From contig CANRPC010000010.1 in assembly GCA_947632435.1 (NCBI GenBank), positions 643-64,642 of the forward strand: a DNA stretch of 64,000 nucleotides, given 5' to 3'. This DNA is from an uncultured Bacilli bacterium (GTDB lineage Bacteria > Bacillota_I > Bacilli_A > RFN20 > CAG-449). The notes beneath the pieces were generated by a model. That model made no database searches. It saw nothing but the letters and a program-made list of their open reading frames with translations, and was not told the origin of the DNA. Made by a program: the position numbers and the translations under genes. Positions 2,067 through 63,128 of this stretch are shown here, in pieces; within the stretch, counting starts at the first letter, position 1, and the number at the start of each line of letters is the position of its first letter.

Positions 2067-5000
2067 AGATTATACTAAAGCTCAGCAAGAAGCCATTATC
2101 TCACATGGAAATAATATTTTAGTTTCTGCAGGGGCAGGAAGTGGTAAAACTCAAGTATTGACGGAAAGAGTTGTTTATTTTATCAAAAATAAAAACTACC
2201 AGTTAGAAAATTTTCTCATTTTGACTTTTACTAATCTTGCGGCCAAAGAAATGAAAGAAAGAATTCGTAAAAATTTAAGTTTAGAAAATTTAAAAGATGC
2301 GGAAAATGTTGATTTTGCTGATATTTGTACTTTTGATTCTTTTTCTTTAGCGCTTGTAAAAAAATATCATCTTTTATTAAATTTATCAGAAAATTTAAAT
2401 ATTGTTGATTCCAATATTATCGCGGTTAAAAAGAAAACTATTATTAACGAAATTTTTAATAGATTATATAAAGAAAAAGATAATGATTTTTTATCTTTAA
2501 TTAATAAATATTGTTTTAAAAAAGATGATGATATTCAAAATTTAATATTTGAAATATATGAAAAAGCATCAAAAGAATTAGATACTGAAAAATATTTAGA
2601 AAATTTTTTAGATAACTATTATAGCGATAAACATTTAGATTTTATTTGCGATTCTTTAGTAAAGCATATTATTCATCAAAAAAATATTTTATTAAAACTT
2701 AGTAATTGTTTACCAAATGAATATTATGACGAAAAAAGTCGTTTCACTTATCAAGAACAAATTCAAAAAACATTTGAATCCTTCTTTTTTGCTAAAGATT
2801 ATGATAATTTAATTGCTAATTTTCCTTTATCTATAAAAGAAATTAAAAAACCGAAAAATATTTCTATTTTAGATGCTCAATATATCTTACTATTTGAAGA
2901 TAGTTATAAATCTTTATTAAATTTGCTAAAAAAAATACCTCAAAATAAAGATGAATTATTTATTTATTGTAAAAACAATCAACTTGAAGCCAAAAAATTA
3001 ATTGAAATTACTTTAAATCTCCATGAATTAATTATGGCATATAAAAAAGAATATCAAGTTTTTGAATTTGATGATATTGCCAAATTTGCTCTTCAATTAG
3101 TGCAAAAAGATTCAGATATTCGTCAAGAACTAAAAGAAAAATATAAAATGATTATGATTGATGAATATCAGGACACTAGTTTATTGCAAGATACTTTTGT
3201 TTCCTTGATTTCTAATAATAATGTTTATATGGTTGGTGATATTAAACAATCCATTTATCGTTTTCGTAATGCTAGAAGCGATATATTTAAAGCTAAATAT
3301 GATGAATATAAAAATCATAATGGTGGAAGAGCTATTGATTTAAACACAAATTTTCGTTCACGTCGTGAAGTTTTACAAGATATTAATTATATTTTTCAAA
3401 ATATTATGCTTGATGAAATTGGAGGCGCAAATTACAAAAAAGATCACATGATAGAATATGGAAACAAAACATATCTTCAAGCAATTAAAGATGAAATTAA
3501 TTATCATGCTGATTTTTTGTTATATAATGATTTAAAAAGTAGTACAAATATAGAAATTGAAGCAAAATTAACCGCGAATGATATTATTAAAAAAATTAAT
3601 AATCATTATCAAGTTATGGAAAAAGGAACATTAAGAGATTGTCGCTTTTCTGATTTTGTAATTTTAATGGATCGTGGAACTAATTTTGAAACAATTGCCA
3701 AAATATTTAGTGATTATAAAATACCTTTATTTGTTGAAAATGACGAAAATATAGCAAAAAATGATATTCTTTTTATTTTAGCTAATTTATTAAGAATAAT
3801 AAAAGCTATATTTAATTTTGATTTTAATAACGATGAATTTAAAAAAGCTTTTGTATCTTTAGCCCGTTCCTTTATTTTTAATTATAGTGATGAAAAAATT
3901 TATCAAATTTGTCATAATGATTTATTTTTAGAAGATAAAATAATGCTTGATTTACAAAATATTATCAAGGAAAATAAGCATCTTCCAATCGCTGATCTAT
4001 TTATTTTAATAATATTTAAACTTGATATTTATCATCGCTTGATTACAATAGGTAATATTAAGAAAAATGAAAGTTATTTAGATTCCATTATTAATATGTT
4101 TTTGAATATGTCAAAATTAGATTATAATATTGAAGAATTTATCTCATATATTGAAAATGTTGAAAATTATGATTTAAAAATTACTTTATCAAGTGTTGCC
4201 ACTTCCTTAGATAGCGTGCGAATAATGAATATTCATAAATCTAAAGGTTTAGAATTTAATATTGTTTATTTTTTAGGTTTAGAAAAAAAATTTAATCGTC
4301 AAGAATTAAAAAATAGCTTTGGTTTATCGAAAAAATTTGGTCTTATTTTGAAAAAATTGGATTCAGATTATATTGATGTAATTAAATACCTTAATACTTT
4401 AGAGGAAGAAAAAGAAGATATATCTGAAAAAATACGTTTGTTTTATGTTATGTTAACTAGAACCAAAGAAAAAATGATTTTTCTTTATAATATAAATGGA
4501 CTTAATAATTACAATAAAGATTATTATTTAAATATATTTAAAAATAATTTATCAGATGAAAATAAAACTCTAAAATTATTTAATTATTTTTTGTATGATT
4601 TAAAATTTAATGCGTATGATTTTGATTATGCTTTAAAAGAAAAAAATATTAAATTACCATATAAAATAAAAGAAAAATTAGATTCTGAAATAGCAAAGCT
4701 ACCATATGATAAAATCAGTTATGATGAAACTATAGAAGATAGATTTAAAAATGAAACATCTTATAATCTTTCTTATCCTATTGAAGAAGAAGATTTATTA
4801 AAATGCAAATCCTTAAAAGATTTAATTTTTGACTTATATAAAAACAAAATGTTTAATAAAAGATTTCTTGATATTAATTTAGAAGCTCAAGAAAATTTGA
4901 TTTTTAATCAAAAGATAAATTTTGAAAATTTAAATTTACAACAAATTAACATTAATGTAAAAGAACAAGAAGTTTTAAGAGCTAGTAAAGAGTTGAGCAT

Positions 5001-8941: not shown

Positions 8942-10440
8942 TGATGAAAAAATATCTTTGCATTGATTTAAAATCTTTTTATGCTTCTGTTGAATGTGCC
9001 GAAAGAGGATTAGATCCTTTAACAACTAATCTTGTAGTTGCTGATTCATCAAGAACTGATAAGACAATTTGTTTAGCTATAACACCTTCTTTAAAAAAAT
9101 ATGGTTTAGGTGGCAGAGCTAGACTTTTTGAAGTAGTTCAAAAAATTAAAGAAGTAAATAATCAAAGAAGAAAAGTAGCTAAAAATTATCGATTTATAAA
9201 AAAATCAAACAATATTTTAGAAATTGAAAATGATCCAAATGTTGAAATAGATTTTATAATTGCAACACCTCGTATGGCACATTATATTGAAATAAGTTCT
9301 AAAATCTATAATATTTATTTAAAATATATAGCTCCTGAAGATATTCATGTCTATTCTATTGATGAAGTTTTTATTGATGCGACTAAATATTTAAAAACAT
9401 ATGGATTATCCGCGCATGAATTAACTTTGAAAATGATAAAAGAAGTTTTAAAAGAAACTAATATTACCGCGACGGCAGGTATAGGAACTAATTTATACCT
9501 TGCTAAAATCGCTATGGATATCGTAGCAAAAAAAATTCCTGCTGATAAAGATGGTGTTCGAATCGCGGAATTAGATGAAATGAGTTATCGTAAAAAATTA
9601 TGGGAACATCGACCTTTACAAGATTTTTGGAGAGTTGGAAAAGGTTATGCTTCAAAATTAGAAGCATATGGAATTTATACTATGGGTGATATTGCTTTAC
9701 AATCAATTAAAGATGAAGATTTATTATATCAATTATTTGGTGTTAATGCTGAACTTTTAATTGATCATGCTTGGGGTTTTGAACCATGTACAATTAAAGA
9801 TATTAAAAATTATAAGCCAGAAAATAGATCTTTAGGTAGTGGTCAAGTTTTACCTGAACCATATGATTATTGTAAAGGACAACTTATTGTAAAAGAAATG
9901 GCTGATGCATTAGCTTTAGATTTATGTGAAAAAGAATTAGTAACAAATCAATTAGTGCTTACCATTTATTATGATGTTGAAAATTTAACAAATAAAAATT
10001 CATCTCAATATATCAAAGAAACTAAATTAGATTACATAGGAAGAAAAATGCCTAAGCCTGCACATGGAACGATTTCTTTAAATCGCTTTACTTCTTCATC
10101 AAAAACTTTACGCGAAAAAATTATGTTGCTATATGATCAAATAATCAATAAGCATCTTTTAATTAGAAAAGTTAATATTACGGCGATAAATATTTTTTTG
10201 AAAAATGATGTTAAAAATTTTACAAAATTTACTCAATTAAGTTTGTTTGATAATAATGAATTACAAGAAGATGAAATAAAAAAAGAAAATAGAAATGAAG
10301 AATTAGATAATAAAGAACAAAAAGCTCTTATTGCTATTAAAAAGAAATTTGGAAAAAATGCAATTATTAAAGGTATGAATCTTGAAGAAGGGGCTACCAT
10401 GACAAAAAGAAATAAGCAAATTGGAGGTCATAAAGCATAA
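8941..10440 (+). CDS. Y-family (UmuC/Pol V-like) translesion DNA polymerase
   Basis: CIDLKSFYASVE, YSIDE, GIGTNLYLAK, WRVG, C-terminal QLSLF clamp motif and GGHKA end. Confidence 0.92.
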   Translation: MMKKYLCIDLKSFYASVECAERGLDPLTTNLVVADSSRTDKTICLAITPSLKKYGLGGRARLFEVVQKIKEVNNQRRKVAKNYRFIKKSNNILEIENDPNVEIDFIIATPRMAHYIEISSKIYNIYLKYIAPEDIHVYSIDEVFIDATKYLKTYGLSAHELTLKMIKEVLKETNITATAGIGTNLYLAKIAMDIVAKKIPADKDGVRIAELDEMSYRKKLWEHRPLQDFWRVGKGYASKLEAYGIYTMGDIALQSIKDEDLLYQLFGVNAELLIDHAWGFEPCTIKDIKNYKPENRSLGSGQVLPEPYDYCKGQLIVKEMADALALDLCEKELVTNQLVLTIYYDVENLTNKNSSQYIKETKLDYIGRKMPKPAHGTISLNRFTSSSKTLREKIMLLYDQIINKHLLIRKVNITAINIFLKNDVKNFTKFTQLSLFDNNELQEDEIKKENRNEELDNKEQKALIAIKKKFGKNAIIKGMNLEEGATMTKRNKQIGGHKA

Positions 10441-10881: not shown

Positions 10882-11862
10882 TTAATTTTGATATTTAATT
10901 TGTTCTTCTTTGTTAATTTTATATTCTTGCATTAAATTGCCTTCTAAATTTACATGAAACAAATTAATCGCACTTATTTGATGATTATTATATGAAGAAT
11001 AATAATAAATACCTTTTGAAGCATTGTAGCAAGAATTATATAAAGTGGCCATACATTCTTGTTCATTGATTCTTACACATCCTTTAGGTTCATTGACCGT
11101 TTCTAAGATGTGAAAGAATTGACTGATATTTTCTTTTTCATTGTCGCTAAATAAAGAATTATATTTAACAAAAGCCGCGCGGATAAATCTTGATTGCGAA
11201 GAATAATCACCAGGGAGACCAAAAGCACCCAAACCATAACTATATTCTTTAATAGGTAAATCTTTTAAAAAGCTATTTTTTGGTGGTAAAGGTGATAGTT
11301 GAAAATAATTATTAAGTTGAAATAATTGAATATTAAAGGGAGGATTATTTGTTAAAATACCAACAGGATTATCGTAAATATTTATTCCTTCTTTCATAGC
11401 TTCAATAGTAACACTTTTATCAGAATCCGCTAAAAGCCAATGCAATTGACTAACATCAACATTTTCACTAAATTTGATATTTGTAATATTTACTTTTTTC
11501 ATTAATTCTAATGCTTCAACAACATTTTTGCATCTGCTTAAAATATAAGGGATTAATTCAAATGTTGCTACATTTTCGGTATTTTTAATTTCGATATTAT
11601 ATTTTGCATTTCCTACAAAATTTAATGCTGCTATAGCTAATCCTTTTTCATTACAAGCATCAAAAAATAAAGGATAATTATCAATTATCGAACACATACC
11701 ATACATGGCATAATGTCTTTTGATGTCCTTAGTATTTTTATCTTTAAAACTGAAGGAAAAGTTTCTAGGTATAACAACAATTTTTTCATGAAAACTATGG
11801 GAAAAATCTAAAGTTCTGCCAAAATAAAAATCTTTCGCTTTATAAGTTAACGCTGTACACAT
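10882..11862 (-). CDS. Second choloylglycine hydrolase family protein (BSH/penicillin V acylase-like)
   Basis: MCTA, GRTLD, NEKGL, TNNPPF, GLPGDYSSQSRF; clear paralogue of 7964..8941. Confidence 0.9.
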   Translation of the reverse strand: MCTALTYKAKDFYFGRTLDFSHSFHEKIVVIPRNFSFSFKDKNTKDIKRHYAMYGMCSIIDNYPLFFDACNEKGLAIAALNFVGNAKYNIEIKNTENVATFELIPYILSRCKNVVEALELMKKVNITNIKFSENVDVSQLHWLLADSDKSVTIEAMKEGINIYDNPVGILTNNPPFNIQLFQLNNYFQLSPLPPKNSFLKDLPIKEYSYGLGAFGLPGDYSSQSRFIRAAFVKYNSLFSDNEKENISQFFHILETVNEPKGCVRINEQECMATLYNSCYNASKGIYYYSSYNNHQISAINLFHVNLEGNLMQEYKINKEEQIKYQN

Positions 11863-14572: not shown

Positions 14573-15378
14573 TGAAAGTTTCTAAGACCACTAAACGCTT
14601 CCGTATTATCTTTTTAAGCGTGATAATATTATTTCTTTATATTCCTCTTTTTTACATTGTTATTTTTTCTTTTAATAAATCTAGTTCATTATTGAAAATG
14701 TCAGGTTTTTCTTTTAAATGGTACTCTCAAATGTTTGATAATGATCAATTGATGGATGCCATTTGGAATACTATTTCTTGTGCTATAATAGCAACAGTAG
14801 TATCCACCATAATTGGTACATTAGGTGCAATTGGTTTATCAAAATATAAAAAAAATAGCCGAAATATTTTATTAGCGGCGACAAATTTTCCCGTATTAAA
14901 TCCCGATATTGTTACTGCTATTGGTTTATTATTAGTATTCTTACTTTTCAATATTAAAGGTGGCTATTTTACAATGATTTTAGCTCATATTAGTTTCTGT
15001 ACACCATTTGTAATAATAACAATATATCCAAAATTAAAAACGTTAGATTCAAATACTTTAGAAGCTGCTATGGATTTAGGTGCAAAACCATTAAATGCAG
15101 TCGTAAGAGTTTTGATTCCTCAATTAAAGTCAGCAATTTTTGCCGCGGCAAGTATGGCATTTACGATGTCCTTTGATGATTTTGTAATTACTTATTTTGT
15201 TACAGGTGCCTCTATTAATAATATTTCAACTTATTTATATACAGTTGTATTAAGAAAAACTAAAGATTTAACAGTAAATGCATTTTCCACAATATTAATT
15301 ATTTTCATTGTAATTATAGTTATAATTAGATTTATAATTGATCAACAAAAATATAAATCTAAAAAAATTAAAAATTAA
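14572..15378 (+). CDS. potC: Polyamine ABC permease
   Basis: FLYIP..FSFN, EAAMDLGA, SFDDFVIT. Confidence 0.9.
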   Translation: MKVSKTTKRFRIIFLSVIILFLYIPLFYIVIFSFNKSSSLLKMSGFSFKWYSQMFDNDQLMDAIWNTISCAIIATVVSTIIGTLGAIGLSKYKKNSRNILLAATNFPVLNPDIVTAIGLLLVFLLFNIKGGYFTMILAHISFCTPFVIITIYPKLKTLDSNTLEAAMDLGAKPLNAVVRVLIPQLKSAIFAAASMAFTMSFDDFVITYFVTGASINNISTYLYTVVLRKTKDLTVNAFSTILIIFIVIIVIIRFIIDQQKYKSKKIKN

Positions 15379-15605: not shown

Positions 15606-18578
15606 ATGAAAAAAAGATTATTTGTTCTTGGTGTTGCTTCCTTATTAGCATTAATGGGATGTAATAATAGTAAAAATAGTTCTACAAATTCTTCTTTTGA
15701 ATCAGTTTCTGTTACGGATTCATCTTCATTATCTGAGGAAGAAAGTTTTACTATTAAAATTGAAACATCAAATTTTGCTATATTACATTGTGATCATACT
15801 GAAGCTAAATTTGGTGAACAAGTTGTTTTAACTTATGAACTAGAAGAAAATTGTGTTTTATTATCAGTAAAAATGAATGATACAGAATTAAAAGAAGATA
15901 GTGAACATCGTTTTGTCTTTGAAATGCCTAAAGAAAACGTAGTTATAACTTATGAAGCTAAATTAACTCATGAAGTGGAATTTGTTTCTTCACATGCAAG
16001 TGCATCTTTAAAAGGTGATAAAACTCGTTTTTATGAAGGTGAAACAGTATTATTTTCGGTAGATAAAGTTGATGAAGATTATACTTTTGATCGTTTTGAA
16101 ATTAAAGATTTAAAAAATAATGTCATTAGTTATACTCATGTTGAAGATTTAGTTTATTCTTTTGAAATGCCTGATGATAAAGTTACAATTACTGCTATCG
16201 CGGAATTGACAAAATATGATATTACTTTACCTTCTTCATTACCTCAAGGAATTGAGTTTATGCTTGTTAATAATAAAGTTTTACCAGAAGAAATGGTTTC
16301 TCTTTATGTTAAAAATGATGTTAAAGAAGAAAAACGTATTGTTTCCGTTTCAAAAGATGGTACACCTTTAGAAGGCAAAGCTACAAATGAAAAAAATGTT
16401 ACCCTATATACATTTGAAATGCCTAAAAATGCTGTTGTAATAACTGCAGAAATTATCGATGTTTATGTTGTTTCATTAAAAGAAGAACTTCAAGATATTT
16501 TAGCTTTAGAGGGTAATTTAATCGCTGCAGAAGGTGAACAAGTTGAATTTACTCCAGTATTTTATAAAGATAATTACTGGGCTAAAAAATTTAAAGCAGT
16601 AGAACAAGATGTTGAAGTTGTTCCATCTAGTAAACAAGGATATTTTACTTTTACAATGCCAAATCATGCCGTAACTATTGATGCTGAAATTGGAAAAATT
16701 GGACATGCCGTAATATTTGATAAAGAATCAAGTTACTATAGCATTGAACTTAAAGATGATACCACTGATGGTATTTATAAAGAAGGAGATGAAGTAAAAG
16801 TAAAAGTCACTCCAAAAAATATAAATGATACTAAAATAACAGGATTAAAAGTAAATGATTCATTATTTGAAGAACTTGATGATGAAGGTTATTATACTTT
16901 TACAATGTTAGATGAAAATGTTACTCTTGATCCAGTTTTAGAATTTAATTATAAAGAAATCGTGGTAGATCAATTTGAAGGATTTACATTTACTGTAACC
17001 ACCTTTAAAGATGATCAAGAAGTTACATGGGAAAATAATGTATTATCTAATCAAGACATTACTATTAATGTTTCTCAATTAGATTTAGAAACAAGTGCTT
17101 ATACTTTATTAGGCTTTAGAGTTTATTATGGAGAAGATGAGAATAACACTAGTGTAAGTAGTACAAAATTAACATCTAATGATGATAAATATACTTATAA
17201 AGTTCAAGAGGATCACTATTATCGTTTTGAACCAATTGTTGTTAAGAAATCTTATTCAACAGAAGAAATCGTTGGTGAATATGAAGCAGGATATAGACCT
17301 TATTGGGAAAAGAATTATCCATTTACATTTTCTGAAACAGGTTCAATAAATTGTTCTGACATGGGTGCTAGTATAAGTAATAAAACTGTTTATGTTGATC
17401 CTCAAAATGAAAATCATTATACATTTGATGGTGGATCTTCATATATAGGACAAATATTCTATAATGGCAATGGCACTATGTTGGTGGTTAATTCCGATAC
17501 AAGAGGAAATACATATTTATTAACTAAAGGTCATGGCAATATTGATATTGATCAATCATTTAGTTATTATTCTTTAATCCCTGAAAGTACAACTATCATT
17601 AGTAAACAATTTATTAATATGGTAACAACTGATGGAACAAATGTAACTGCTTTATATGATTATGTATTAAATAAAGTTTACTTTAATCCAACAATGGAAG
17701 TTATTTCTGGAACTGATGGAAAAACTTTAAATGATGAAGTTTTAATTAAAGATAATCAAGATAATGTTTTAGCGTTATTTAAAATTACAAAAATTAGTTC
17801 TAAAGGTGATGGTTATCAACATGCTGCAGTAGAAGAAAGTCTTGATTCATATGCTGGCAATTATACGCCATTTGCTGAAGAAGATGGAACTGATAATTTA
17901 CTTGTTACAGGTTATGGCAAAGTAAAAATTGGTGAAAATACATATTCTTATACTCTTGAAGATAATATTCTTTGTGTAGAAATTGAAGGAGTTACAAAGT
18001 ATTATGTTTTAAATAAAGAAGATTTTACATATAAAAAATCTTTAGGACCAACAGATAGTTATGAAGGAACATATTCATTAGATGGCCAAGATGTAGTTTT
18101 AGATGGCTATGGGAATGCGACTAAAGGCGAAGAAACATTTACTTATGAAATAAAAAATGATAAGTATTTGGTTTTGACAAGTTCCACAAGTGAAATAACT
18201 TATTATTTAATTGATAAAGATAGTTTTACTTTAACGCAAATTGAAGAACTTTTAAATCCATATGTTGATAAAACTTATGAAGCAGCCTTTGATTTTAACT
18301 CACTTAAATGTAAAGCAATAATAACTTTTACTTCAGAAACAGAATGTGATTTTAAATATACAAAAGAAGATGGTGGTTATCCAACTGTTCATTCTTGTAA
18401 AGGAACTTATGAAATTAAAGATGGTGGAATAGTTACTATTAATATTACAAAAGTTACTGGTGCAAAACTAAGTTTTGATCTTCAAGATAATGGACAAGGT
18501 GCATTAATTATGCTTCAAGAAGAAGTTATTGGAAATGGTTATAGTATTCCAGTAAATGCTAAATTTGAAGTTAAATAA
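15606..18578 (+). CDS. Large acidic surface lipoprotein with tandem beta-sandwich (InlB-B/Flg_new_2-like) repeats
   Basis: Lipobox LMGC, Ser-rich linker, at least five F(E/T)M(P/L)..V.(I/L) repeats, then Y.G.Y...GYG beta modules. Start at ATG 15606. Confidence 0.75.
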   Translation: MKKRLFVLGVASLLALMGCNNSKNSSTNSSFESVSVTDSSSLSEEESFTIKIETSNFAILHCDHTEAKFGEQVVLTYELEENCVLLSVKMNDTELKEDSEHRFVFEMPKENVVITYEAKLTHEVEFVSSHASASLKGDKTRFYEGETVLFSVDKVDEDYTFDRFEIKDLKNNVISYTHVEDLVYSFEMPDDKVTITAIAELTKYDITLPSSLPQGIEFMLVNNKVLPEEMVSLYVKNDVKEEKRIVSVSKDGTPLEGKATNEKNVTLYTFEMPKNAVVITAEIIDVYVVSLKEELQDILALEGNLIAAEGEQVEFTPVFYKDNYWAKKFKAVEQDVEVVPSSKQGYFTFTMPNHAVTIDAEIGKIGHAVIFDKESSYYSIELKDDTTDGIYKEGDEVKVKVTPKNINDTKITGLKVNDSLFEELDDEGYYTFTMLDENVTLDPVLEFNYKEIVVDQFEGFTFTVTTFKDDQEVTWENNVLSNQDITINVSQLDLETSAYTLLGFRVYYGEDENNTSVSSTKLTSNDDKYTYKVQEDHYYRFEPIVVKKSYSTEEIVGEYEAGYRPYWEKNYPFTFSETGSINCSDMGASISNKTVYVDPQNENHYTFDGGSSYIGQIFYNGNGTMLVVNSDTRGNTYLLTKGHGNIDIDQSFSYYSLIPESTTIISKQFINMVTTDGTNVTALYDYVLNKVYFNPTMEVISGTDGKTLNDEVLIKDNQDNVLALFKITKISSKGDGYQHAAVEESLDSYAGNYTPFAEEDGTDNLLVTGYGKVKIGENTYSYTLEDNILCVEIEGVTKYYVLNKEDFTYKKSLGPTDSYEGTYSLDGQDVVLDGYGNATKGEETFTYEIKNDKYLVLTSSTSEITYYLIDKDSFTLTQIEELLNPYVDKTYEAAFDFNSLKCKAIITFTSETECDFKYTKEDGGYPTVHSCKGTYEIKDGGIVTINITKVTGAKLSFDLQDNGQGALIMLQEEVIGNGYSIPVNAKFEVK
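18009..18032 (+). repeat. 24-bp exact repeat shared by the two surface-protein paralogues (second copy 20547..20570)
   Basis: TTAAATAAAGAAGATTTTACATAT at both positions. Confidence 0.85.
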
Positions 18579-24719: not shown

Positions 24720-26430
24720 ATTGGTATTGATATAATCTAGCGTAAATACCATTTAATTTTATTAAGGAATCGTGAGTTCCTTTTTCTTTTATTTCTCCAT
24801 CGTTAATAACTATAATTTCATCTGCTTTTTTAACAGTTGATAATCTATGCGCTACAACAATCGTAGTTCTTCCTTGACATAAATTTTCTAATGCTTGTTG
24901 AATTTGCATTTCCGTAACATTATCTAATGCAGATGTTGCTTCATCAAGAATTAAAATTTCAGGATTTTTTAAAAAAGCTCTAGCAATAGAAATACGTTGT
25001 TTTTGACCACCTGATAATTTTACCCCTCTTTCACCAACATATGTATCATATGTAAATTCAAGGCTCATAATAAATTCATGTATATTTGCTTTTTTTGCAG
25101 CTTCAATAATTTCTTCTTCAGTTGCATTAGGCTTTCCATAAGCAATATTTTCTTTAACTGTACCAGCAAATAAAAATACATCTTGAGCAACTATACCAAT
25201 GTGCTCTCTTAAAGATGAAAATGTAAATTTTTTAATATCAATTCCATCGATTGTTATTATTCCATCATTAATTTCATAAAAGCGTGGTAATAAATGACAA
25301 ATTGTTGTTTTACCTCCACCAGTAGGACCAACTAAAGCAATAGTAGATCCTTTTTTAATTTTTAAAGAAAAATTTTTAAGCACTAAAGGTAGATTTTTTT
25401 TATAATTAAAATTAATATTTTTATATTCTATCTCCTCATTAAAATTTTTTAATATTAAAGGATTTTTATCTTCCTTTTCCTCTTCTTCATGCATTATTTC
25501 TACAAAACGTTCAAAGCCAGTCATACCTGATTGTATTTGTTCAAAAATATTAATAAATGTTCTTATAGGATTTATAAGAGTAGCGATATATAGAATATAC
25601 GCGGTCAATTCACCAATATCGATAATTTCAAAATAAAAGAATAATCCACCAGAAAAAATAGCTACAAGATAAAGAAAATCTGTAAAAAAATTCATTCCTG
25701 AATTAAATATTCCCATTTGTTTATAAGCCTTTGCTCTTGCATCTTGAAATGCTAAATTTGAATTTTTAAATTTATTTTTTTCATATTCAAGTGCGTTATA
25801 TGCTTTTAAAACTCTAATTCCCGCGACAGATGATTCTACTTGAGAATTAATTTCTCCAGTTTTAATACGCATTTCTTTAAATGCTTGTTTTTGTTTTTTT
25901 CTTCTATAAATTGCAAATGATACAATCAAAGGCACAATACATAAAATAATTAAAGCTAAATATATGTTAATTGTGCATAACATTATAAATGCTCCGATAA
26001 AAGTAATAATAGATAAAAATAAATCTTCGGGTCCATGATGGGCAAGTTCTGATATATCCATTAAGTCATTGATAATTCTTGACATTATTGTGCCAGTTTT
26101 ATTGTTATCATAGTAATTAAAAGGTAGTTTTTCTAATTTTTCAAACATTGTTTGGCGCATATCACCTTGAATTCTTACACCTACAATATGACCATAATAT
26201 TGAATAAAATAATTTAAAAATAGTTTAACTACATAAATGAAAAAAAGAACAATACACCAAATAATTATAAGATTTAAGGCTTTATTTGGAACATAAATAT
26301 TAATAATGTTTTTTACAATATTAGGATAGAATAAATTACAAAGTGCGACAATTAATGCACATATAATATCCGCGATAAATAATTTTTTATGCGGTTTGTA
26401 AAAAGAAAAAAAATATTGTAAATTTCTCAT
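24709..26430 (-). CDS. ABC exporter, fused TMD-NBD (MsbA/YwjA-like)
   Basis: Six-TM N-terminus, ELAHHGPE, GPTGGGKT, LSGGQKQR, DEATSALD. Start ATG 26430 after SD GGTG. Confidence 0.9.
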   Translation of the reverse strand: MRNLQYFFSFYKPHKKLFIADIICALIVALCNLFYPNIVKNIINIYVPNKALNLIIIWCIVLFFIYVVKLFLNYFIQYYGHIVGVRIQGDMRQTMFEKLEKLPFNYYDNNKTGTIMSRIINDLMDISELAHHGPEDLFLSIITFIGAFIMLCTINIYLALIILCIVPLIVSFAIYRRKKQKQAFKEMRIKTGEINSQVESSVAGIRVLKAYNALEYEKNKFKNSNLAFQDARAKAYKQMGIFNSGMNFFTDFLYLVAIFSGGLFFYFEIIDIGELTAYILYIATLINPIRTFINIFEQIQSGMTGFERFVEIMHEEEEKEDKNPLILKNFNEEIEYKNINFNYKKNLPLVLKNFSLKIKKGSTIALVGPTGGGKTTICHLLPRFYEINDGIITIDGIDIKKFTFSSLREHIGIVAQDVFLFAGTVKENIAYGKPNATEEEIIEAAKKANIHEFIMSLEFTYDTYVGERGVKLSGGQKQRISIARAFLKNPEILILDEATSALDNVTEMQIQQALENLCQGRTTIVVAHRLSTVKKADEIIVINDGEIKEKGTHDSLIKLNGIYARLYQYQFRD

Positions 26431-39521: not shown

Positions 39522-40907
39522 ATGGAAAGAGACTTTGCTTATCGCTTTACTAATGAAGTATATGCGACTAAAGAAGTTGTAAAAAAAACATTGAATATTA
39601 ATTCAATAGATCATATTTGGGATACTATCCTAGCGTATCGTAAACTTTACAATAAAGTTTTAGATTTATTTTCTAATGATAAAAAACCATTTACTGTTTG
39701 TCTTTGTGAAGGTATATTAAAACGTTATATTGATCTAGAGAAAAAAATTATGGATATAACAGTTTTAAATGCTCAATATCAAAATAATCAAATTTTAAAT
39801 AGTAAAACAATTTTACGCATTATTACCCAAATTTACGACTTTAAAGATGTAAGTGATACCATTATAAATGGAATTGTTGAAAATACAATTGCTCAAATTC
39901 CATATCATTACCAAATTTTTAATAAATATTATTCTTGTTTAAAAGATATTGAAATTTGTTATGCCTCTTTATTAAACGAGAATACGATTAAAAGATTATT
40001 CTCTATATTGATGCATGGTGAGATTAATAAAATCGATGAAATAAATAAATTATATAGAGTTACAGAATTAGAATCAAATTTTGATCCGTATGAAAATTTT
40101 CGCCATTATGAAGGTTCACCAACAAAAAATATTCCATATCTTATGGAAATTTTATTTGATGATATTAATGAGAATAAACTTGTATCCTTAATTGAAGGAG
40201 GGGTTTTGTTATTTTATATTTTATATTTTAAACCTTTTGAAATATATAATGAAGAAATGGCAATATTATTAACTAAGTACTATTTAAAAAATCATAATGA
40301 GAATCTTGTTTATTTACCTCTTGAAGAATTGATATTAGATTTAAATTCTGATGAGATGAAAAAAGTTTTTTTAGAATGTGAAAAAAGTTTAGACTTAACT
40401 TATTTTATCGATATGTTTTTTACAAAACTTGATAAATTTTTACAAGAACAACAAAAAAATCTTAAGCATCAACAAGAACTAGAAATGCAAAATGAAATTC
40501 TTGTAGAAGATGATATAAATAATCTTGATAATACTTCACAAACATTTTTAGATGATAACAACCTAGTTAATCAAGATACAAAAGTTGAAATGTCAAGATT
40601 TGAAGGTGTGACTTTTGAAAGAAAAGTATCTATGCCTATTATTCCTAAAGGACTTGATGAAAAAGATGCATCTTTAGTGGCTGAAAACCTTATTGAAATT
40701 TGTCCTACTTTAAAAAAAGGACAAGCTGAATTTTATGCACGTCATTGTACAATTGGCAAATATTACACTATTCAGCAATATAAAATAGCAAATAAAGTTG
40801 CTTATGAAACCGCGCGTACATCTATGGATAATCTTGCGGATTTAGGCTTTTATAAAAAAGAAAAAATCCGTAATAAATTTGTTTACACGCCTATTATTAG
40901 ATCTTAA
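39522..40907 (+). CDS. Fic-fold protein with degenerate active site and C-terminal winged HTH
   Basis: YR flap, then LYFKPFEIYNEEMA where HPFxDGNGR is expected; C-terminal YTIQQY...YETARTSMDNLADLGF HTH. Confidence 0.7.
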   Translation: MERDFAYRFTNEVYATKEVVKKTLNINSIDHIWDTILAYRKLYNKVLDLFSNDKKPFTVCLCEGILKRYIDLEKKIMDITVLNAQYQNNQILNSKTILRIITQIYDFKDVSDTIINGIVENTIAQIPYHYQIFNKYYSCLKDIEICYASLLNENTIKRLFSILMHGEINKIDEINKLYRVTELESNFDPYENFRHYEGSPTKNIPYLMEILFDDINENKLVSLIEGGVLLFYILYFKPFEIYNEEMAILLTKYYLKNHNENLVYLPLEELILDLNSDEMKKVFLECEKSLDLTYFIDMFFTKLDKFLQEQQKNLKHQQELEMQNEILVEDDINNLDNTSQTFLDDNNLVNQDTKVEMSRFEGVTFERKVSMPIIPKGLDEKDASLVAENLIEICPTLKKGQAEFYARHCTIGKYYTIQQYKIANKVAYETARTSMDNLADLGFYKKEKIRNKFVYTPIIRS

Positions 40908-42216: not shown

Positions 42217-43121
42217 AATTTAAATTTAATTTTAATTTCCTTAATAATATCTTGATATTCTAAATCATTTAAAAAATGAATTAATTTATTTCGTTTGTTA
42301 TTAAATGGATATTCATAAAAACGATTATATATTTCAGGATGTGGATTATTCCAAAAATCATAGCCATCAATAATATGATTTTCAAAAAAACAATTTAAAA
42401 TTATTGTCTTACCAAAACTTCTCCAAGGACGAGAGATATAAACATTGTTTACTGACTCATTTTTCTTTTTAAAAGTACAATTTAATACGTAAAAGCCATC
42501 ATTTTGGAATAAACTATGACTTGGTGCAAAAACATAACCTGAATCTGAAGAAATTAAAGTGCAATTTTCAAAAAGTGAAGATCCCGAACCAAAAATAAAA
42601 TCAATAGCGCCTTCAATTTCACAATTTATAAATTTAGAATAAACATTTCCTTCAATAAATAATTCTTCTTTTGATAAAAAATTGAAGTAACGAATTTTTA
42701 AATCATCAGGAAGTGGTCCAAGAAATAATGTATCTTGGTAAGAAGTAAAATAACAATTCTTTGCTTTAAAATTATTTCCTAAAACCTCTAATGCAATGGC
42801 TTGATGATATTTTTTTTCATTAGCTAAATTCATTATGGAAATATTTTCTAAAGAACAATTATTTCCTTTAACAATCATTGTCGCGGTTCTAAAAGTATTA
42901 TAATCTCTTTTGTCTTCGTGTATTTTTAAACTATAATCATCAAATGCTATAATAACATTTTCTTTTGATTCACCAATTATTTTAATATTATCTTTTTTTA
43001 TTATGATTTTTTCTTTATAAAATCCATTTTTAATAAAAATTTCACCATTTTTACTTACTAAATCTAATGCTTTAGCTAAACTATCTATATCAGTATTTTT
43101 TTCTACAACAACTTTTTGCAT
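42213..43121 (-). CDS. Pectin methylesterase (CE8), no signal peptide
   Basis: G.YKE, TFRTAT, QAIAL, YQDTL, IDFIFG, SRPW. Confidence 0.9.
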   Translation of the reverse strand: MQKVVVEKNTDIDSLAKALDLVSKNGEIFIKNGFYKEKIIIKKDNIKIIGESKENVIIAFDDYSLKIHEDKRDYNTFRTATMIVKGNNCSLENISIMNLANEKKYHQAIALEVLGNNFKAKNCYFTSYQDTLFLGPLPDDLKIRYFNFLSKEELFIEGNVYSKFINCEIEGAIDFIFGSGSSLFENCTLISSDSGYVFAPSHSLFQNDGFYVLNCTFKKKNESVNNVYISRPWRSFGKTIILNCFFENHIIDGYDFWNNPHPEIYNRFYEYPFNNKRNKLIHFLNDLEYQDIIKEIKIKFKF

Positions 43122-45111: not shown

Positions 45112-46002
45112 ATGGGTGGTCGTTTAGATAGATCAGAGATAATTTTCAAAATTATTTCTTACACTTTATTAACTATATTCGCATTATTTTGTTTATATCC
45201 ATTTATTTATACCATTTCCGCGGCTATTTCATCACAGGATGCTGTAGATGCTGGTAAAGTTGTTATTTTTCCAATAGGATTACAATTCGATGCATTTAAA
45301 TATGTCTTTGAAGATAGAAGCTTCTGGTTAGCATATACATCTACTTTATTTGTTACTCTTTGGGGTACAGTTTGGTCAATGTTTATTTCGATTTTTGGTG
45401 GCTATGCACTTTCTAAAAAAAGAATACCATTTAATAAAGGTTTGAATTTCTTCTTAGTATTTACAATGTGGTTCTCAGCTGGTATGATTCCAACTTTAAT
45501 TAACTATCAACAAACAAGAGATATTTTCCAAAATATTGGTATTGTTGACCAAAAATGGGTTGTTGTTATCGCAATGGGACTTGCTGCTTATAATATTATC
45601 TTATTAAGAAATGCTTTCTCTGGCGTACCAAAAGAAATCGAAGAAGCAGCAACTGTTGATGGTGCAAATGAATTCCAAATTGCAACTAAAGTTTTTATAC
45701 CTATGTCTAAGGCTTCAATTGCAACAGTAGCATTGTTCTATGGTATCTCACGTTGGAATGGTTACTTCTGGGCAAAGCAAATCATGGTTGGTGAAGATCA
45801 AATACCACCATTACAAGTTTTTATCCGTAATACTTTAGATAAAGTTCTTGGTGGTGAAGAAACTCACTCTTATGATGGATTCTCGGTTAGTTCATTATTC
45901 TATGCAATGATTGTTTGCGCTGTTGTTCCAATTATTATTATTTATCCATTTATTCAAAAATATTTTGCTGCTGGTGTTAACCTCGGTGGCGTTAAAGAAT
46001 AA
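45112..46002 (+). CDS. Carbohydrate ABC permease (LplC/YtcP type)
   Basis: FSAGMIP, EEAATVDGA, RWNGYF, YPFIQKYF..G...GGVKE. Confidence 0.92.
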   Translation: MGGRLDRSEIIFKIISYTLLTIFALFCLYPFIYTISAAISSQDAVDAGKVVIFPIGLQFDAFKYVFEDRSFWLAYTSTLFVTLWGTVWSMFISIFGGYALSKKRIPFNKGLNFFLVFTMWFSAGMIPTLINYQQTRDIFQNIGIVDQKWVVVIAMGLAAYNIILLRNAFSGVPKEIEEAATVDGANEFQIATKVFIPMSKASIATVALFYGISRWNGYFWAKQIMVGEDQIPPLQVFIRNTLDKVLGGEETHSYDGFSVSSLFYAMIVCAVVPIIIIYPFIQKYFAAGVNLGGVKE

Positions 46003-53261: not shown

Positions 53262-54803
53262 ATGTTTGAATTTATTTTTGTTTCGCCTACTTCACTAACT
53301 ATTGAATTAATTAATAAAGATATTTATTACACGAAAAAAGAATATGATGTTTATCTTGATGATAAATTATTAAAAAAAGGTGTAAAAACAAATGTTGTTT
53401 CTTTATATGATTTGATTCCAAATAGAGAGTATAAAGTAAGAATAGATGATTGCGAAAAAAAAGTCCGTACAAAAAATGTAAGCTGCATTTTTGATATTAT
53501 GGATTTTGGTGTTCATAAAAATGGAACCGATGATGACACAAAAGCTATTAATCAAGCCATTATGATGACTCCTGAAAATGGTTTACTTGTTTTTCCTGAA
53601 GGAGTTTATAGAATTACATCTTTATTTTTGAAATCAAATATTTTTATTGAACTAAAAAAAGGTGCAATATTATTAGCTTCCGAAAATGTGGATGATTATC
53701 CTATATTTACTGGTGAATTACCTAGATATGATATTGATGATAATGTTCAATTAGGACAATGGGAAGGAAGTCCGTTCCCTAATAAAGCTTCTATTATTGC
53801 AGGTTATTGGTTAAATAATGTTTATTTATATGGCGAAGGCACTATTGATGGCAATGCACAAAATAGTACATGGTGGATTAATCATAAAACTCATCCATGG
53901 GGACGTCCAAGATTATTATTTTTAGATGGTTGTAATGATGTTCAAATTCAAGGTTTATCTTTTCAAAATACTCCTTGTTGGACACTTCATCCTTTCTTTT
54001 CAAAAAAAATTGGATTTTATGATATTAGAGTAACAAATCCCAAAGATTCACCTAATACAGATGGAATGGATCCTGAATCTTGTGATGATGTAAAAATTAT
54101 TGGTGTTATTTTCTCTGTTGGCGATGATTGTATTGCTATTAAATCTGGAAAAATGTATATGGGAATGAAATATAAAACACCAAGTTCTAATTTTATCATC
54201 CGCAATTGTTTAATGAAAGATGGTCATGGTGCTATAGTTTTAGGATCAGAGATGTCTGGTGGAATAAATAATTTGCAAGTGGAAAGATGTATTTTCCAAA
54301 ATACTGATCGCGGATTAAGAATTAAAACCCGTAGGGGAAGAGGAAAATATGCCATTATAGATGGTGTTGAATTTAAAGATATAATTATGGATGGAGTATT
54401 AACACCACTTGTCATTAATATGTTTTATTTTTGTGATCCTGATGGAAAAACAGAATATGTTTATTCTAAAGAAAAATTGCCAGTCGATGATAGAACTCCA
54501 TATTTAGGTAAATTTACTTTTAAAAATATTGTGGCGACAAATGTTGAATGGGCTGCAGGATATTTTTACGGTTTACCAGAAAGACCAATTGAAGAAATAA
54601 ATATTGAAAATTGTACCTTTGAATATAAATTAGATGCTACTGAAGGATGCCCTGCAATGATGTCATTTGCAGAAAAAGTTTCTAAACGTGGTTTTTCTTT
54701 AAATTATGTTAATAAAGTTTCATTAAAAAATGTAAAACTATTTGGTAATGTCGGCGAAAGAGTTATAATAAATAATGTAGAAAGCATTACTGATGATGAA
54801 TAA
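53262..54803 (+). CDS. GH28 polygalacturonase, no signal peptide
   Basis: All four GH28 motifs: NTD, GDD, GHG, RIK. Start ATG 53262 after GGAGG. Confidence 0.93.
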   Translation: MFEFIFVSPTSLTIELINKDIYYTKKEYDVYLDDKLLKKGVKTNVVSLYDLIPNREYKVRIDDCEKKVRTKNVSCIFDIMDFGVHKNGTDDDTKAINQAIMMTPENGLLVFPEGVYRITSLFLKSNIFIELKKGAILLASENVDDYPIFTGELPRYDIDDNVQLGQWEGSPFPNKASIIAGYWLNNVYLYGEGTIDGNAQNSTWWINHKTHPWGRPRLLFLDGCNDVQIQGLSFQNTPCWTLHPFFSKKIGFYDIRVTNPKDSPNTDGMDPESCDDVKIIGVIFSVGDDCIAIKSGKMYMGMKYKTPSSNFIIRNCLMKDGHGAIVLGSEMSGGINNLQVERCIFQNTDRGLRIKTRRGRGKYAIIDGVEFKDIIMDGVLTPLVINMFYFCDPDGKTEYVYSKEKLPVDDRTPYLGKFTFKNIVATNVEWAAGYFYGLPERPIEEINIENCTFEYKLDATEGCPAMMSFAEKVSKRGFSLNYVNKVSLKNVKLFGNVGERVIINNVESITDDE

Positions 54804-55395
54804 TTTGAATCTATATATCAAGTTAAATAAAGAATTGAGTCATAGAAAAGCAGAATTTGTTTTTAAATCAATTATAGGTAATTCTTTTCAATTAAATTGG
54901 GGTGATGATGAGATATTTGGGAGTTTAGTACTAGAACATCCAACTACTCAATTTGTTAATTTAAAGTTAAATTATGATGCTTTATGTTCTGATTTAATGG
55001 ATGATGTTACTATCGTCATTGTTCCAAGATTTGAAGATACATTAGAAAAAATTGTTCGTGAAAAATGTCAACCTGGACTTTATCCTATTGTAAAAATTCT
55101 TCCTCAACTTTTAAATGAAGATGAAGAATTGTTTGAAAAATTAAGTGAATTTAAAAATAAGGTTAATGAAGATATTCTTGAAACGGTAAAAGTTTATTTA
55201 GAGTTAAATATGTCTGTGAATATGGTTGCTAGGCTTGTCTATACACACCGTAATACGGTAAATTACCGAATTACAAGATTTATTGAAATGACAGGGATAG
55301 ATATACGTTCATCATTAAACGGTTATTATGTTTATATGCTTATATCCTGGAAGAATCCAGTTTATAATAAAATTAAAGAGGAGGAAAATTTATGA
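54793..55395 (+). CDS. PucR/CdaR-type C-terminal HTH regulator
   Basis: ETVKVYLE.N.SV...AR..YTHRNTVNYRI.R..E.TG.D. Confidence 0.85.
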   Translation: MMNNLNLYIKLNKELSHRKAEFVFKSIIGNSFQLNWGDDEIFGSLVLEHPTTQFVNLKLNYDALCSDLMDDVTIVIVPRFEDTLEKIVREKCQPGLYPIVKILPQLLNEDEELFEKLSEFKNKVNEDILETVKVYLELNMSVNMVARLVYTHRNTVNYRITRFIEMTGIDIRSSLNGYYVYMLISWKNPVYNKIKEEENL

Positions 55396-56003: not shown

Positions 56004-56006
56004 AAA

Positions 56007-61301: not shown

Positions 61302-63128
61302 TTATTGATTTTCTTTTTTCATCCTTGCATCATATTTTTTTCGTTCAACAGTGTCAAGAATCTTTTTTCTTAAACGGAATGTTAAAGGAGTTACCTCGAC
61401 TAATTCATCGGTATTTATATAATCCAAACATTCTTCAAGAGACATTTTTCGAGGAGTTTTTAAAACTACTGTTGTATCTTTTGATGATGAACGCATGTTT
61501 GTTAAATTTTTTTCTTTAACAACAGTTACAGCAAGATCCATATCATATTTATTTTCACCAACAATCATTCCTTCATATACTTGAATTCCTGGACTTATAA
61601 ATAAGGTTCCTCTTTCTTCAACATGTTGAATTGCATATGGAGTTGCTTGACCAGTTTCTGTGGAAACTAAAACACCTAGAGAACGTTCACCAACATTCAT
61701 TTTTAATTTTTCACGATATTCTTTAAAAGTATGATTTATGATACCATACCCTTTTGTCATAGTTAAAAATGAGGTTGCAAAGCCTAATAAAGCTCGTGAA
61801 GGAACAACATAGTTAACGCGTACTTGATTTTGATTATATGTCATATGGATTAATTCACCGCCGCGTGAACCAAAAGTATCCATGATACTTCCTAAATAAT
61901 CTTCAGGACAATCAATTTGTACATCTTCAAAAGGTTCTTTAACAATTCCATCTTCTTCTTTTAAAATTACTTCTGGTTTTGAAACTTGTAATTCAAAACC
62001 TTCTCTTCTCATATTTTCTATTAAAATAGATAAGTGTAATTCACCTCTACCAGAGACGATAAATGATTCACTATTAGGAATTTTTTCAACACGTAAAGAA
62101 ACATCTCTTTGACATTCTTTGAATAATCTTTCTTCGATTTTCGAATAAGTTAATAATTTTCCATCTTGCCCTGCAAAAGGTGAAGAATTAACACCAAATG
62201 TCATTTGTAATGTTGGAGGATCAATTCTTAATTTTGGTAATGGAATGATATTATTAATATCACATAATGTTTCTCCAACTGATAAATCTTCTAAACCTGC
62301 TACTGCAACAATATTACCTGCAGTTGCTTCTTTAATTTCTACTTTTTTAAGGCCAAAAAAACCATATAATTTTTGTATTTTGAAATTTTTAATGCTTCCA
62401 TCTAAACGACAACATGCAACCATTTCGTTGACTTTAATTGTACCTGATTTTACTCTTCCAATACCAATTCTACCAACATAATCGTTGTAATCTAAAAGTG
62501 CTGGTTGAAATTGAAGCGGTTTATTTACATCAGTGTCTGGAGCAGGAATTTCTTTTATTATTGTTTCAAATATTGGGTCCATGCCTTGTTTTTGATCCTC
62601 AAGTTTATTGGAATATGAAGATGTTCCTTTTAAAGCAGAACAATATATTGTTTTAAATTCGAGTAAATCATCATCTGCGCCTAATTCCATAAATAATTCT
62701 AATACTTCATCGACAACGCGATTAACATCAGCATTTGGTCTATCAACTTTATTAACAACAACAACAGGTTTAACGTGTGCCTCTAATGCTTTTTTTAAAA
62801 CAAAACGTGTCTGAGGCATTGTTCCTTCAAAAGCATCGACAACAAGCAAAACCCCATCAACCATATTCATAATTCTTTCAACTTCGCCACCAAAATCAGC
62901 ATGACCTGGAGTATCTAAAATATTAATTCTTGTATCTTTATAATTTATTGATGTCGGTTTAGCCAGAATAGTAATTCCTCTTTCACGCTCAATATCATCA
63001 CTATCCATAACTCTATCAAGAATTTCTTCATTTTCACGAAATGTTCCAGAATATTTAAGTAATTGATTTACAAGTGTTGTTTTACCATGATCAACATGTG
63101 CAATAATGGCAATATTTCTTATATCCAT
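61302..63128 (-). CDS. typA: Translational GTPase TypA/BipA
   Basis: IAIIAHVDHGKTTLV, GHADFGGEVER, GRGELHL, YEGMIVG, LTNMRSS. Confidence 0.98.
   Translation of the reverse strand: MDIRNIAIIAHVDHGKTTLVNQLLKYSGTFRENEEILDRVMDSDDIERERGITILAKPTSINYKDTRINILDTPGHADFGGEVERIMNMVDGVLLVVDAFEGTMPQTRFVLKKALEAHVKPVVVVNKVDRPNADVNRVVDEVLELFMELGADDDLLEFKTIYCSALKGTSSYSNKLEDQKQGMDPIFETIIKEIPAPDTDVNKPLQFQPALLDYNDYVGRIGIGRVKSGTIKVNEMVACCRLDGSIKNFKIQKLYGFFGLKKVEIKEATAGNIVAVAGLEDLSVGETLCDINNIIPLPKLRIDPPTLQMTFGVNSSPFAGQDGKLLTYSKIEERLFKECQRDVSLRVEKIPNSESFIVSGRGELHLSILIENMRREGFELQVSKPEVILKEEDGIVKEPFEDVQIDCPEDYLGSIMDTFGSRGGELIHMTYNQNQVRVNYVVPSRALLGFATSFLTMTKGYGIINHTFKEYREKLKMNVGERSLGVLVSTETGQATPYAIQHVEERGTLFISPGIQVYEGMIVGENKYDMDLAVTVVKEKNLTNMRSSSKDTTVVLKTPRKMSLEECLDYINTDELVEVTPLTFRLRKKILDTVERKKYDARMKKENQ

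Follow-up and report, generated by a model that had tools for sequence, protein, structure and literature searches.

The window considered here is the whole stretch of DNA that was analysed, 64,000 nucleotides (G000:C10:643-64642) from an uncultured Bacilli bacterium, and the element in question is the pentamer CCGCG with its complement CGCGG, which an earlier note on this DNA had described as strongly over-represented. The window carries genes that include Gram-positive-type AddAB, RNase J1, bile-salt hydrolases and enzymes of pectin degradation, and the public sequencing runs that contain stretches of it are gut metagenomes, including rabbit. The source genome (G000, genus g1) is an assembly of 1.68 Mb in 42 contigs, with 26% G+C and a completeness of 98%. 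The excess of CCGCG and CGCGG reflects the half-sites of an iterated palindrome, CCGCGG, which has the core CGCG and is lineage-wide. This palindrome is written into one reading frame of the genes, it is symmetric between the strands, and between close relatives it is gained faster and lost more slowly than control words.

The motif in the window

The earlier note had listed 21 start coordinates, and every one of them matches CCGCG on one strand or the other. The window holds 25 strand matches, 13 on the plus and 12 on the minus strand, which bears out the described lack of orientation bias. The matches outnumber the listed sites because those at 15143, 31089 and 45218 are complete palindromes and the sequence at 11175-11182 is CCGCGCGG. 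An expectation of about 3 sites had been given, and 100 dinucleotide-preserving shuffles of the window reproduce it (mean 3.14, standard deviation 1.95, maximum 9), with none of the 100 reaching 25. The tetramer CGCG occurs 30 times; 22 of these lie within the listed sites and 8 lie elsewhere, where about six had been counted. Most sites had been read as NNC GCG codon pairs, and 19 of the 21 are such pairs, while 54309 and 61861 read CGC GGN (Arg-Gly). The sites are given below with the codons that contain them.

2421..2425: half-site CGCGG as ATC GCG G, in the AddA-like gene 2056-5409 (+)
3572..3576: half-site CCGCG as ACC GCG A, in the AddA-like gene 2056-5409 (+)
9410..9414: CCGCG as TCC GCG C, in the DinB-like polymerase gene 8941-10440 (+)
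9467..9471: CCGCG as ACC GCG A, in the DinB-like polymerase gene 8941-10440 (+)
9564..9568: CGCGG as ATC GCG G, in the DinB-like polymerase gene 8941-10440 (+)
11175..11182: CCGCGCGG, two overlapping half-sites, sense ATC CGC GCG GCT, in the bile-salt-hydrolase gene 10882-11862 (-)
15143..15148: full palindrome CCGCGG as GCC GCG GCA, in the PotC-like permease gene 14572-15378 (+)
16199..16203: CGCGG as ATC GCG G, in the gene 15594-18578 (+)
25600..25604: sense CCGCG as ACC GCG T, in the MsbA-like ABC transporter gene 24709-26439 (-)
25821..25825: sense CGCGG as GTC GCG G, in the MsbA-like ABC transporter gene 24709-26439 (-)
26370..26374: sense CGCGG as ATC GCG G, in the MsbA-like ABC transporter gene 24709-26439 (-)
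29964..29968: CGCGG as TAC GCG G, in the gene 28768-30171 (+)
30436..30440: CGCGG as ATC GCG G, in the gene 30182-33130 (+)
31089..31094: full palindrome CCGCGG as GCC GCG GAA, in the gene 30182-33130 (+)
32025..32029: CCGCG as TCC GCG A, in the gene 30182-33130 (+)
38672..38676: CCGCG as ACC GCG C, in lepA 37519-39375 (+)
40810..40814: CCGCG as ACC GCG C, in the gene 39522-40907 (+)
42882..42886: sense CCGCG as ACC GCG A, in the pectinesterase-like gene 42213-43130 (-)
45218..45223: full palindrome CCGCGG as TCC GCG GCT, in the ABC permease gene 45112-46002 (+)
54309..54313: CGCGG as CGC GGA (Arg-Gly), a frame at the codon-shuffled null level
61861..61865: sense CGCGG as CGC GGC (Arg-Gly), in typA 61302-63128 (-), a frame at the codon-shuffled null level

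The site at 54309 is probably not part of the phenomenon and falls into the same chance class as 61861. The window is typical of its genome, with NNC GCG filling 19 of 669 possible pairs against 520 of 17130 genome-wide. Near-identical public contigs cover positions 25500-45400, and among about 40 listed differences (with 40 more beyond the listing) none falls at the 11 motif sites of this part, the strains being too close for an inference. A LepA query for related loci returned only distant Firmicutes with at most 74% identity, which are unusable for a comparison of orthologous sites.

Genome-wide excess and the hexamer as its unit

The excess extends beyond the window. The 1.68 Mb assembly contains 695 strand matches, 5.3 times the zero-order expectation, and CCGCG/CGCGG is the top 5-mer genome-wide, with an observed-to-expected ratio (O/E) of 1.89 under a maximal-order Markov model. 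The gene set consisted of 1375 open reading frames (ORFs) of at least 100 amino acids, called longest first and covering 89% of the genome, and it was compared with 100 codon shuffles in which the protein and the codon usage of each gene were kept. Codon usage does not account for the enrichment, with CCGCG observed 297 times against 41.8 ± 6.0 in the shuffled genes and CGCGG 368 times against 72.9 ± 7.9. Neither of the two outcomes by which the earlier note would have been refuted, similar counts in shuffled genes or an excess limited to the window, was obtained. The palindrome CCGCGG itself was observed 163 times against 9.1 ± 2.9, and 159 times against 5.8 in the frame NCC GCG G. The fold excess rises with the length of the match, from 4.2 for in-frame CGCG through 10 to 12.5 for the pentamers to 27 for CCGCGG. 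The pentamer is enriched, as claimed, but the hexamer CCGCGG with its core CGCG describes the unit better.

Within the ORFs, 597 of the 665 pentamer matches fall into two sense frames, NCC GCG (273) and NNC GCG G (324), and in both of them GCG is an in-frame alanine codon that follows a codon ending in C. A C-ending codon precedes GCG in 27.9% of 1867 cases, against 1.5-13% for every other codon, and after a codon ending in CC alanine is spelled GCG in 273 of 492 cases, against a baseline of about 6%. Other frames stay at the codon-shuffled null (NNC CGC G, 15 vs 15.2; CGC GG, 34 vs 38.0). A site was counted as usable where the protein reads [Ser/Pro/Thr/Ala]-Ala-[codon starting with G], i.e. 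NCx GCy G. The hexamer occupies 159 of the 921 usable sites of the source genome (17%), and states one change away remain near baseline, with (T,G) at 42, (C,A) at 39, (A,G) at 14 and (C,T) at 18. In G002, a relative of the same genus, 131 of 265 sites are filled in the frame NCC GCG G, none of 131 where positions 1 and 4 of the hexamer are silent, and none of 52 where positions 3 and 6 are silent. The driven positions of the hexamer are 2 and 5, the two wobble bases. An excess confined to one frame disfavours a binding or uptake sequence, one of the causes that had been proposed for the window.

The 159 in-frame hexamers are spread over 136 genes. Their spacing among usable contexts is near random (coefficient of variation 1.37 vs 1.16 ± 0.10; 25 gaps below 1 kb vs 23.5 expected), and no positive relation of occupancy with gene length or with the G+C content of third codon positions (GC3) was found. 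Occupancy varies among contigs (chi-square 57.8, 21 degrees of freedom).

Some simple sources of such a word were tried and rejected. A by-product of insertion or footprint, in which 6-bp insertions would yield X-Ala-X, is contradicted by motif sites that align gap-free and by an amino-acid context that is equally conserved (0.53 vs 0.56). GC clustering or GC-biased conversion fails on the missing GC3 relation and on the reversed word GGCGCC, which occurs 12 times where CCGCGG occurs 167 times, and on the same grounds duplex stability was rejected as the cause. The frame-0 excess of CGCG in G012, a relative from genus g2, is not a separate effect, being mostly CGC GCG and hence the identical wobble event.

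Several side observations concern related words. In the source genome the hexamer is preceded by C in 2 of 138 cases and followed by G in 9 of 208, a symmetric exclusion of CCCGCGG/CCGCGGG that is absent from G002. The non-palindromic CCACGA (71/1700) and its complement TCGTGG (82/2693) are enriched at the same wobble positions, also in G002 and G012; their degrees of enrichment are similar, which speaks for a cause at the level of DNA. In G002 a broader pattern, CCNCG(A/C/G), is over-represented. Homopolymers of seven G or C number 46 against a zero-order expectation of 2.2 (20-fold) and may be phase-variable tracts.

Strand symmetry, expression and non-coding DNA

The bases that flank the core are preferred alike on both strands. 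On the 5' side the order is C>G>T>A and on the 3' side G>C>A>T, its reverse complement, and the 4x4 flank matrix is reverse-complement symmetric, with CCGCGC at 0.088 vs GCGCGG at 0.099, CCGCGA at 0.058 vs TCGCGG at 0.040, and CCGCGT at 0.007 vs ACGCGG at 0.006. In G012 the flank preference becomes S-CGCG-S, on both sides jointly. Across the whole genome, the coupling of wobble pairs correlates with that of the reverse complement at r 0.35, against 0.07 for the reversed-only and 0.04 for the complemented-only words. There is no sense-strand bias between NCC GCG (273) and NNC GCG G (324).

Occupancy is lowest in highly expressed genes, where translational selection is strongest. The ribosomal-protein operon has 0 of its 23 usable sites filled, and among the 70 genes whose codon usage comes closest to that of ribosomal proteins 8 of 112 are filled, against 24 of 81 in the lowest fifth. 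Occupancy is equal after codons for Thr, Ala and Ser (56/262, 61/296 and 40/225), although the tRNAs that read them are of different types. Translational efficiency is accordingly not the cause. Acquired DNA is devoid of the motif, with 0 of 16 sites filled in the defence-island contig C17 and 0 of 9 in a prophage-like stretch of C1. Strict non-coding DNA contains 15 motif sites, counted over all strong contexts, against 5.9 expected from base composition (2.5-fold, p 0.0013), a comparison that is blurred by constrained RNA elements and unannotated short genes. These symmetric flanks, the absence of sense-strand bias, the low occupancy of highly expressed genes and the 2.5-fold non-coding excess support the core inference of the earlier note, namely that the motif is made or preserved by an agency at the level of DNA.

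A looser count outside ORFs of at least 100 amino acids gives 31 pentamer matches and 4 of 65 hexamer contexts filled, and several of these matches lie in tRNAs, T-box leaders and contig ends. Those at C14:19532, C5:58163 and C37:729 presumably belong to a conserved T-box leader word, GGTGGTACCGCG. Other non-coding CCGCG matches lie in tRNA T-arms, and the T-box-like and T-arm matches are unrelated to the coding-frame phenomenon. The assembly has 41 tRNA genes, including a tRNA-Ala with anticodon CGC, and C34 tRNAs for Thr, Ser, Val, Glu, Gln, Lys, Leu and Gly are present despite 26% G+C; tRNA-Thr(UGU) was not seen in the assembly.

Spread within the family

The motif was compared across 31 genomes of the family and 8 genomes from 7 other families of the order, with the reversed word GGCGCC as control for the counts of CCGCGG. 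The source genome has 167 copies of CCGCGG and 12 of GGCGCC. Three relatives of the same genus have 261, 402 and 98 copies against 16, 9 and 5, and three genomes of genus g2 have 278, 319 and 279 against 17, 11 and 33. Of the 31 family genomes, those of g1 (4) and g2 (3) have a strong excess without exception, as does a subclade of g4 (G006, G036, G037 and G038); the excess is variable in g5 and weak in g3. No comparable excess of CCGCGG was found in the 8 genomes from the other families. The occupancy of usable sites NCx GCy G, taken for the relatives from sampled stretches, is as follows.

G002: 131/265 (49%)
G012: 49/143
G006: 17/130
G007: 8/121
G010: 5/93
G011: 0/137
G016: 0/65

Usable amino-acid contexts have a similar density per codon in enriched and unenriched genomes, and therefore proteins have not been altered to create the site. 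In the literature searched, neither an excess of CCGCGG or CGCG nor an iterated palindrome was found reported for Firmicutes, Bacilli or Mollicutes.

Gain and loss between relatives

Rates of gain and loss were taken from G006 and G036, two genomes of genus g4 with about 90% DNA identity, aligned over 207 orthologous genes and 70,556 codons at about 94% amino-acid identity. At 4-fold sites of this pair, wobble C is kept in 47% and wobble G in 45% of cases. In CCGCGG contexts the (C,G) state is kept in 19 of 23 cases, against 3 of 14 control 4-fold pairs (p 4e-4). The motif is gained in one step in 4 of 11 cases against 11 of 668 in controls (p 5e-5), and in two steps in 3 of 101 against 7 of 5293 (p 7e-4). 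Other CGCG contexts are intermediate, with 38 of 62 kept, 22 of 213 gained in one step and 24 of 548 gained in two. With G037 or G038 as the outgroup, 8 gains and 2 losses are inferred, and T>C before a conserved GCG is seen in 47 of 147 cases, against 6.9% elsewhere. Gain is raised and loss is lowered, and simple protection from decay is therefore excluded. The proposal that N4-methylcytosine (m4C) only resists deamination is accordingly insufficient, given gains raised at least 20-fold and no methyltransferase capable of acting on CCGCGG found in the assembly.

Over a long distance, between G000 and G002 with a median amino-acid identity of 59%, the occupancy of orthologous sites is nearly independent (14/19 vs 41/76, p 0.19). 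Conservation of orthologous sites, which had been suggested as a check, is thus present at about 94% amino-acid identity and was not seen at 59%. In the long term the pressure is conserved and the individual sites are not.

Search for an enzyme

A conserved methyltransferase had been proposed as one candidate agent, and the search returned no family common to all strongly enriched genomes. The source genome has one C5 methyltransferase, whose catalytic motifs are close to those of M.HhaI; its gene lies beside a C-protein gene and a truncated HpaII-type nuclease.

G000:C17:19264-23109: C5 methyltransferase, C-protein gene and HpaII-type nuclease remnant

G002 has a like arrangement, with the nuclease split into two ORFs. 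The tetramer CCGG is strongly avoided, at 84 copies vs 607 expected in the source assembly and 9 vs 158 in one frame of G002, an avoidance that fits the HpaII-linked C5 system in both genomes. A link between the palindrome and this avoidance or its HpaII-type system was rejected, G012 being enriched with neither CCGG avoidance nor a C5 enzyme.

The other DNA methyltransferases of the source genome are a double Dam-like DPPY enzyme, a prophage DPPY enzyme and an Eco57I/MmeI-like NPPY enzyme, and its remaining matches to (S/D/N)PP(Y/F) are rRNA, tRNA or protein methylases, or chance. In the relatives, the PF01555 enzymes of about 260 amino acids are DpnII-like DPPY pairs, and PF02384 enzymes were not found in G001 and G002. 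MutS and MutS2 are present in all 31 genomes. A third MutS-like gene was rejected as the common agent, being confined to the enriched g4 subclade and G021, with no copy in g1 or g2. It encodes about 590 amino acids, is probably shared by descent, and was located as follows.

G006:C3:71539-72018: third MutS-domain gene
G036:C9:41031-41513: third MutS-domain gene
G037:C30:4024-4497: third MutS-domain gene
G038:C155: third MutS-domain gene
G021:C47: third MutS-domain gene

As a side observation, three-gene loci with two DPPY methyltransferases and an ORF of about 290 amino acids are scattered in the order, often on small contigs (G001, G002, G008, G010, G014, G015, G017 and G019); they look DpnII-like and would presumably have GATC specificity. 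None of the known enzyme families searched explains the trait, and in metagenome bins a plasmid-borne gene is possible.

Neighbouring genes in the window

Two paralogous bile-salt hydrolase genes, 7964-8941 (+) and 10882-11862 (-), flank the DinB-like Y-family polymerase gene 8941-10440 together with a 143-amino-acid ORF without a family match. The polymerase has an N-terminal extension of about 100 residues. A pectin/galacturonate cluster at 42213-57032 comprises a pectinesterase-like gene, polygalacturonase, sugar ABC transporters, KDG kinase and KDPG aldolase.

Likeness to known systems

Among the candidates in the earlier note, an iterated motif like HIP1 comes closest. HIP1 (GCGATCGC) and the alternate highly iterated palindromes (HIPs) of cyanobacteria (PMC4390886, PMC5861425) are short, G+C-rich palindromes in many-fold excess that lie mostly in genes. 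They occur patchily across a whole lineage, highly expressed genes contain fewer of them, and close genomes keep them better than control words, all of which holds for CCGCGG. In the sections of Xu et al. 2018 that bear on this point, HIP1 shows enrichment and conservation in every frame as well as in non-coding DNA and is rarer in highly expressed genes, and the authors argue for selection (PMC5861425). The corresponding parts of Elhai 2015 link HIPs to matching methyltransferases and propose a methylation-dependent repair ratchet (PMC4390886). The likeness holds for the many-fold, lineage-wide and conserved excess, but it fails in other respects. Unlike HIP1, CCGCGG is confined essentially to one frame, with O/E of about 1 in the others, and has a weak excess outside coding DNA; it belongs to another phylum (Bacilli) and is a different word, of a different length (6 bp); and no matching methyltransferase was found, where HIPs come with one in the portion of PMC4390886 considered.

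CCGCGG is shared as a hexamer with the DraI system and the nucleases Eco29kI and Cfr42I. According to the parts of PMC6712171 and PMC10855626 that concern it, M.DraR1 of Deinococcus radiodurans is an N4 methyltransferase for the second C in CCGCGG, the same cytosine that is driven here, and the accompanying nuclease is of the Eco29kI type. The present genomes differ: none of 21 was found to encode a nuclease of the Eco29kI family, and the search for an m4C enzyme gave no candidate. Restriction systems are generally expected to deplete, and not to enrich, their sites.

Very-short-patch repair, known from Dcm/Vsr at CCWGG in E. coli, pushes the second C from T to C on either strand. It resembles the present case in that one base, the second C, is driven and the site accumulates only where that base can change. 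It differs in that the source genome has no Vsr gene and no matching C5 methyltransferase was found, the effect is far stronger, and transversions also seem favoured, which T:G-specific repair would not give. DNA uptake sequences (DUS), uptake signal sequences (USS) and Chi are over-represented short words too, but they exceed CCGCGG in length or have a strand orientation, and they are found in more than one frame and in intergenic DNA. Like CCGCGG they are written into genes by silent choices; unlike them, CCGCGG has no strand bias and keeps to one frame. Codon-pair bias shares the preference between neighbouring codons, whereas the CCGCGG excess is alike on both strands, peaks in weakly expressed genes and exceeds the usual codon-pair effects by far.

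Proposed mechanism and its rivals

We tentatively favour, at somewhat below an even chance, a HIP-like, strand-symmetric and sequence-specific base-directed correction or conversion on DNA. A bias of this kind would push the first C of CGCG, on either strand, towards C, and would write the motif at both silent positions of those X(NNC)-Ala(GCG) pairs that the protein permits. Precursors at a distance of one or two silent changes do convert far faster than controls, and existing motifs are lost far more slowly. Codon selection in highly expressed genes would oppose the pressure, and in recently acquired DNA the pressure would have yet to act. The activity may be like very-short-patch repair in its effect, or like the methylation-directed repair proposed for cyanobacterial HIPs. 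A bolder version, which we consider rather unlikely as a whole, is that a gut Bacilli family has a new sequence-specific DNA correction system, neither Vsr nor a classical methyltransferase, that would rewrite the first C of CGCG in CCGCGG from any base and fill up to half of the permissible sites, with a specificity that evolves between genera (CCGCGG; S-CGCG-S).

Several observations weigh against a correction on DNA. Non-coding DNA has 15 motif sites where 32.5 would be expected if it were coding-like (p 5e-4), a comparison subject to the same blur as the first; G012 has 1 non-coding site against 9.2, and of the strict non-coding hexamer contexts 1 of 38 is filled. A codon-level cause would likewise confine the excess to one frame. 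Transversions seem raised too, with A>C at 5/30 vs 3.8% and T>G (after NNC) at 22/207 vs 3.4%, though multiple hits blur these figures. The rates come from genus g4 and not from the source genus, the ORF calls are crude, if adequate at 26% G+C, and all genomes are metagenome bins from which plasmids or islands may be lacking. The enzyme searches are adverse as well. A scan for SPPY/SPPF motifs returned only a lipoprotein and ThiI in the source genome and nothing in the samples of its relatives, and every N6/N4 enzyme found was of the DPPY or NPPY type or belonged to a DpnII-like pair. C5 methyltransferases occur in just 7 of 21 genomes and in none of the strongly enriched G004, G006 and G012. 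Vsr was found in 0 of the 21 genomes, the source included, and in 1 of the 31 family genomes, while 2 of the 31 had a DUF559 match at the cut-off. None of 21 genomes was found to encode an Eco29kI-type nuclease for CCGCGG, with a positive Deinococcus control.

An alternative that we regard as unlikely is that CCGCGG is a functional DNA site under selection, serving as an orphan-modification mark or in recombination, transformation or chromosome organisation, in which case the abundance of the motif would be a result of selection on the density of sites. The strong retention between close relatives (19/23 vs 3/14), the lineage-wide occurrence and the apparent favouring of all kinds of change towards the motif would suit such a site, and HIP1 has a like negative relation with expression in the part of PMC5861425 that treats it. 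Selection on a site should however act in every frame in which silent changes can produce it, where G002 shows 0/131 and 0/52 against 131/265; usable amino-acid contexts are no commoner in enriched genomes, orthologous sites are not kept over a long distance (14/19 vs 41/76), spacing is close to random and the non-coding excess is weak. A codon-level cause, in which NNC-GCG followed by G is favoured in translation, for example through tRNA-Ala(CGC), with the palindrome as a coincidence, appears to us still less probable. It would account for the single reading frame, for the weaker signal in non-coding DNA than in genes and for a tRNA-Ala(CGC) kept in a genome of 26% G+C. Against this stand the flanks, which are reverse-complement symmetric and shift symmetrically in another genus, the equal enrichment of NCC GCG and NNC GCG G (273 and 324), the lowest occupancy in highly expressed genes, the independence from the tRNA that reads the first codon, and the 15 non-coding sites where 5.9 are expected. 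The odds shift is about 100-fold, and codon-pair effects are usually far below this.

We think it very improbable that a resident methyltransferase places N4-methylcytosine on the second C of CCGCGG and merely protects it from deamination under A+T drift. The driven base is exactly that second C on each strand, motif loss is slowed, and M.DraR1 has this very specificity in the parts of PMC6712171 and PMC10855626 that describe it. Yet gains are raised more than 20-fold, beyond what protection can do, no methyltransferase family is common to all strongly enriched genomes, and a 98% complete assembly lacks an SPPY-type or other adenine-free-site enzyme except the HpaII-linked C5 methyltransferase. 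It is next to inconceivable that composition, codon usage, the amino-acid content or a handful of repeated genes produce the excess, for this fails dinucleotide shuffles, Markov models and codon shuffles (z of about 40), the 159 in-frame hexamers lie in 136 genes, and there is no positive GC3 relation.

Implications

Hyper-abundant palindromes have been documented mainly in cyanobacteria, and whether they originate from selection or biased repair is still argued. CCGCGG provides a second, independent case, in small, A+T-rich gut Bacilli, and it sharpens the question, in that the pressure falls on one identifiable base and its strength ranges from none to half-saturation within one family. Specificity differs between genera, and close species pairs let the rates of gain and loss be measured directly. 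The drive has given a genome with about 26% G+C hundreds of SacII sites, and it distorts codon-pair statistics, tetranucleotide binning signatures and GC3-based inferences in these genomes. If a correction system is indeed at work, this family would offer a tractable, methylase-independent model for the rise of iterated palindromes such as HIP1.

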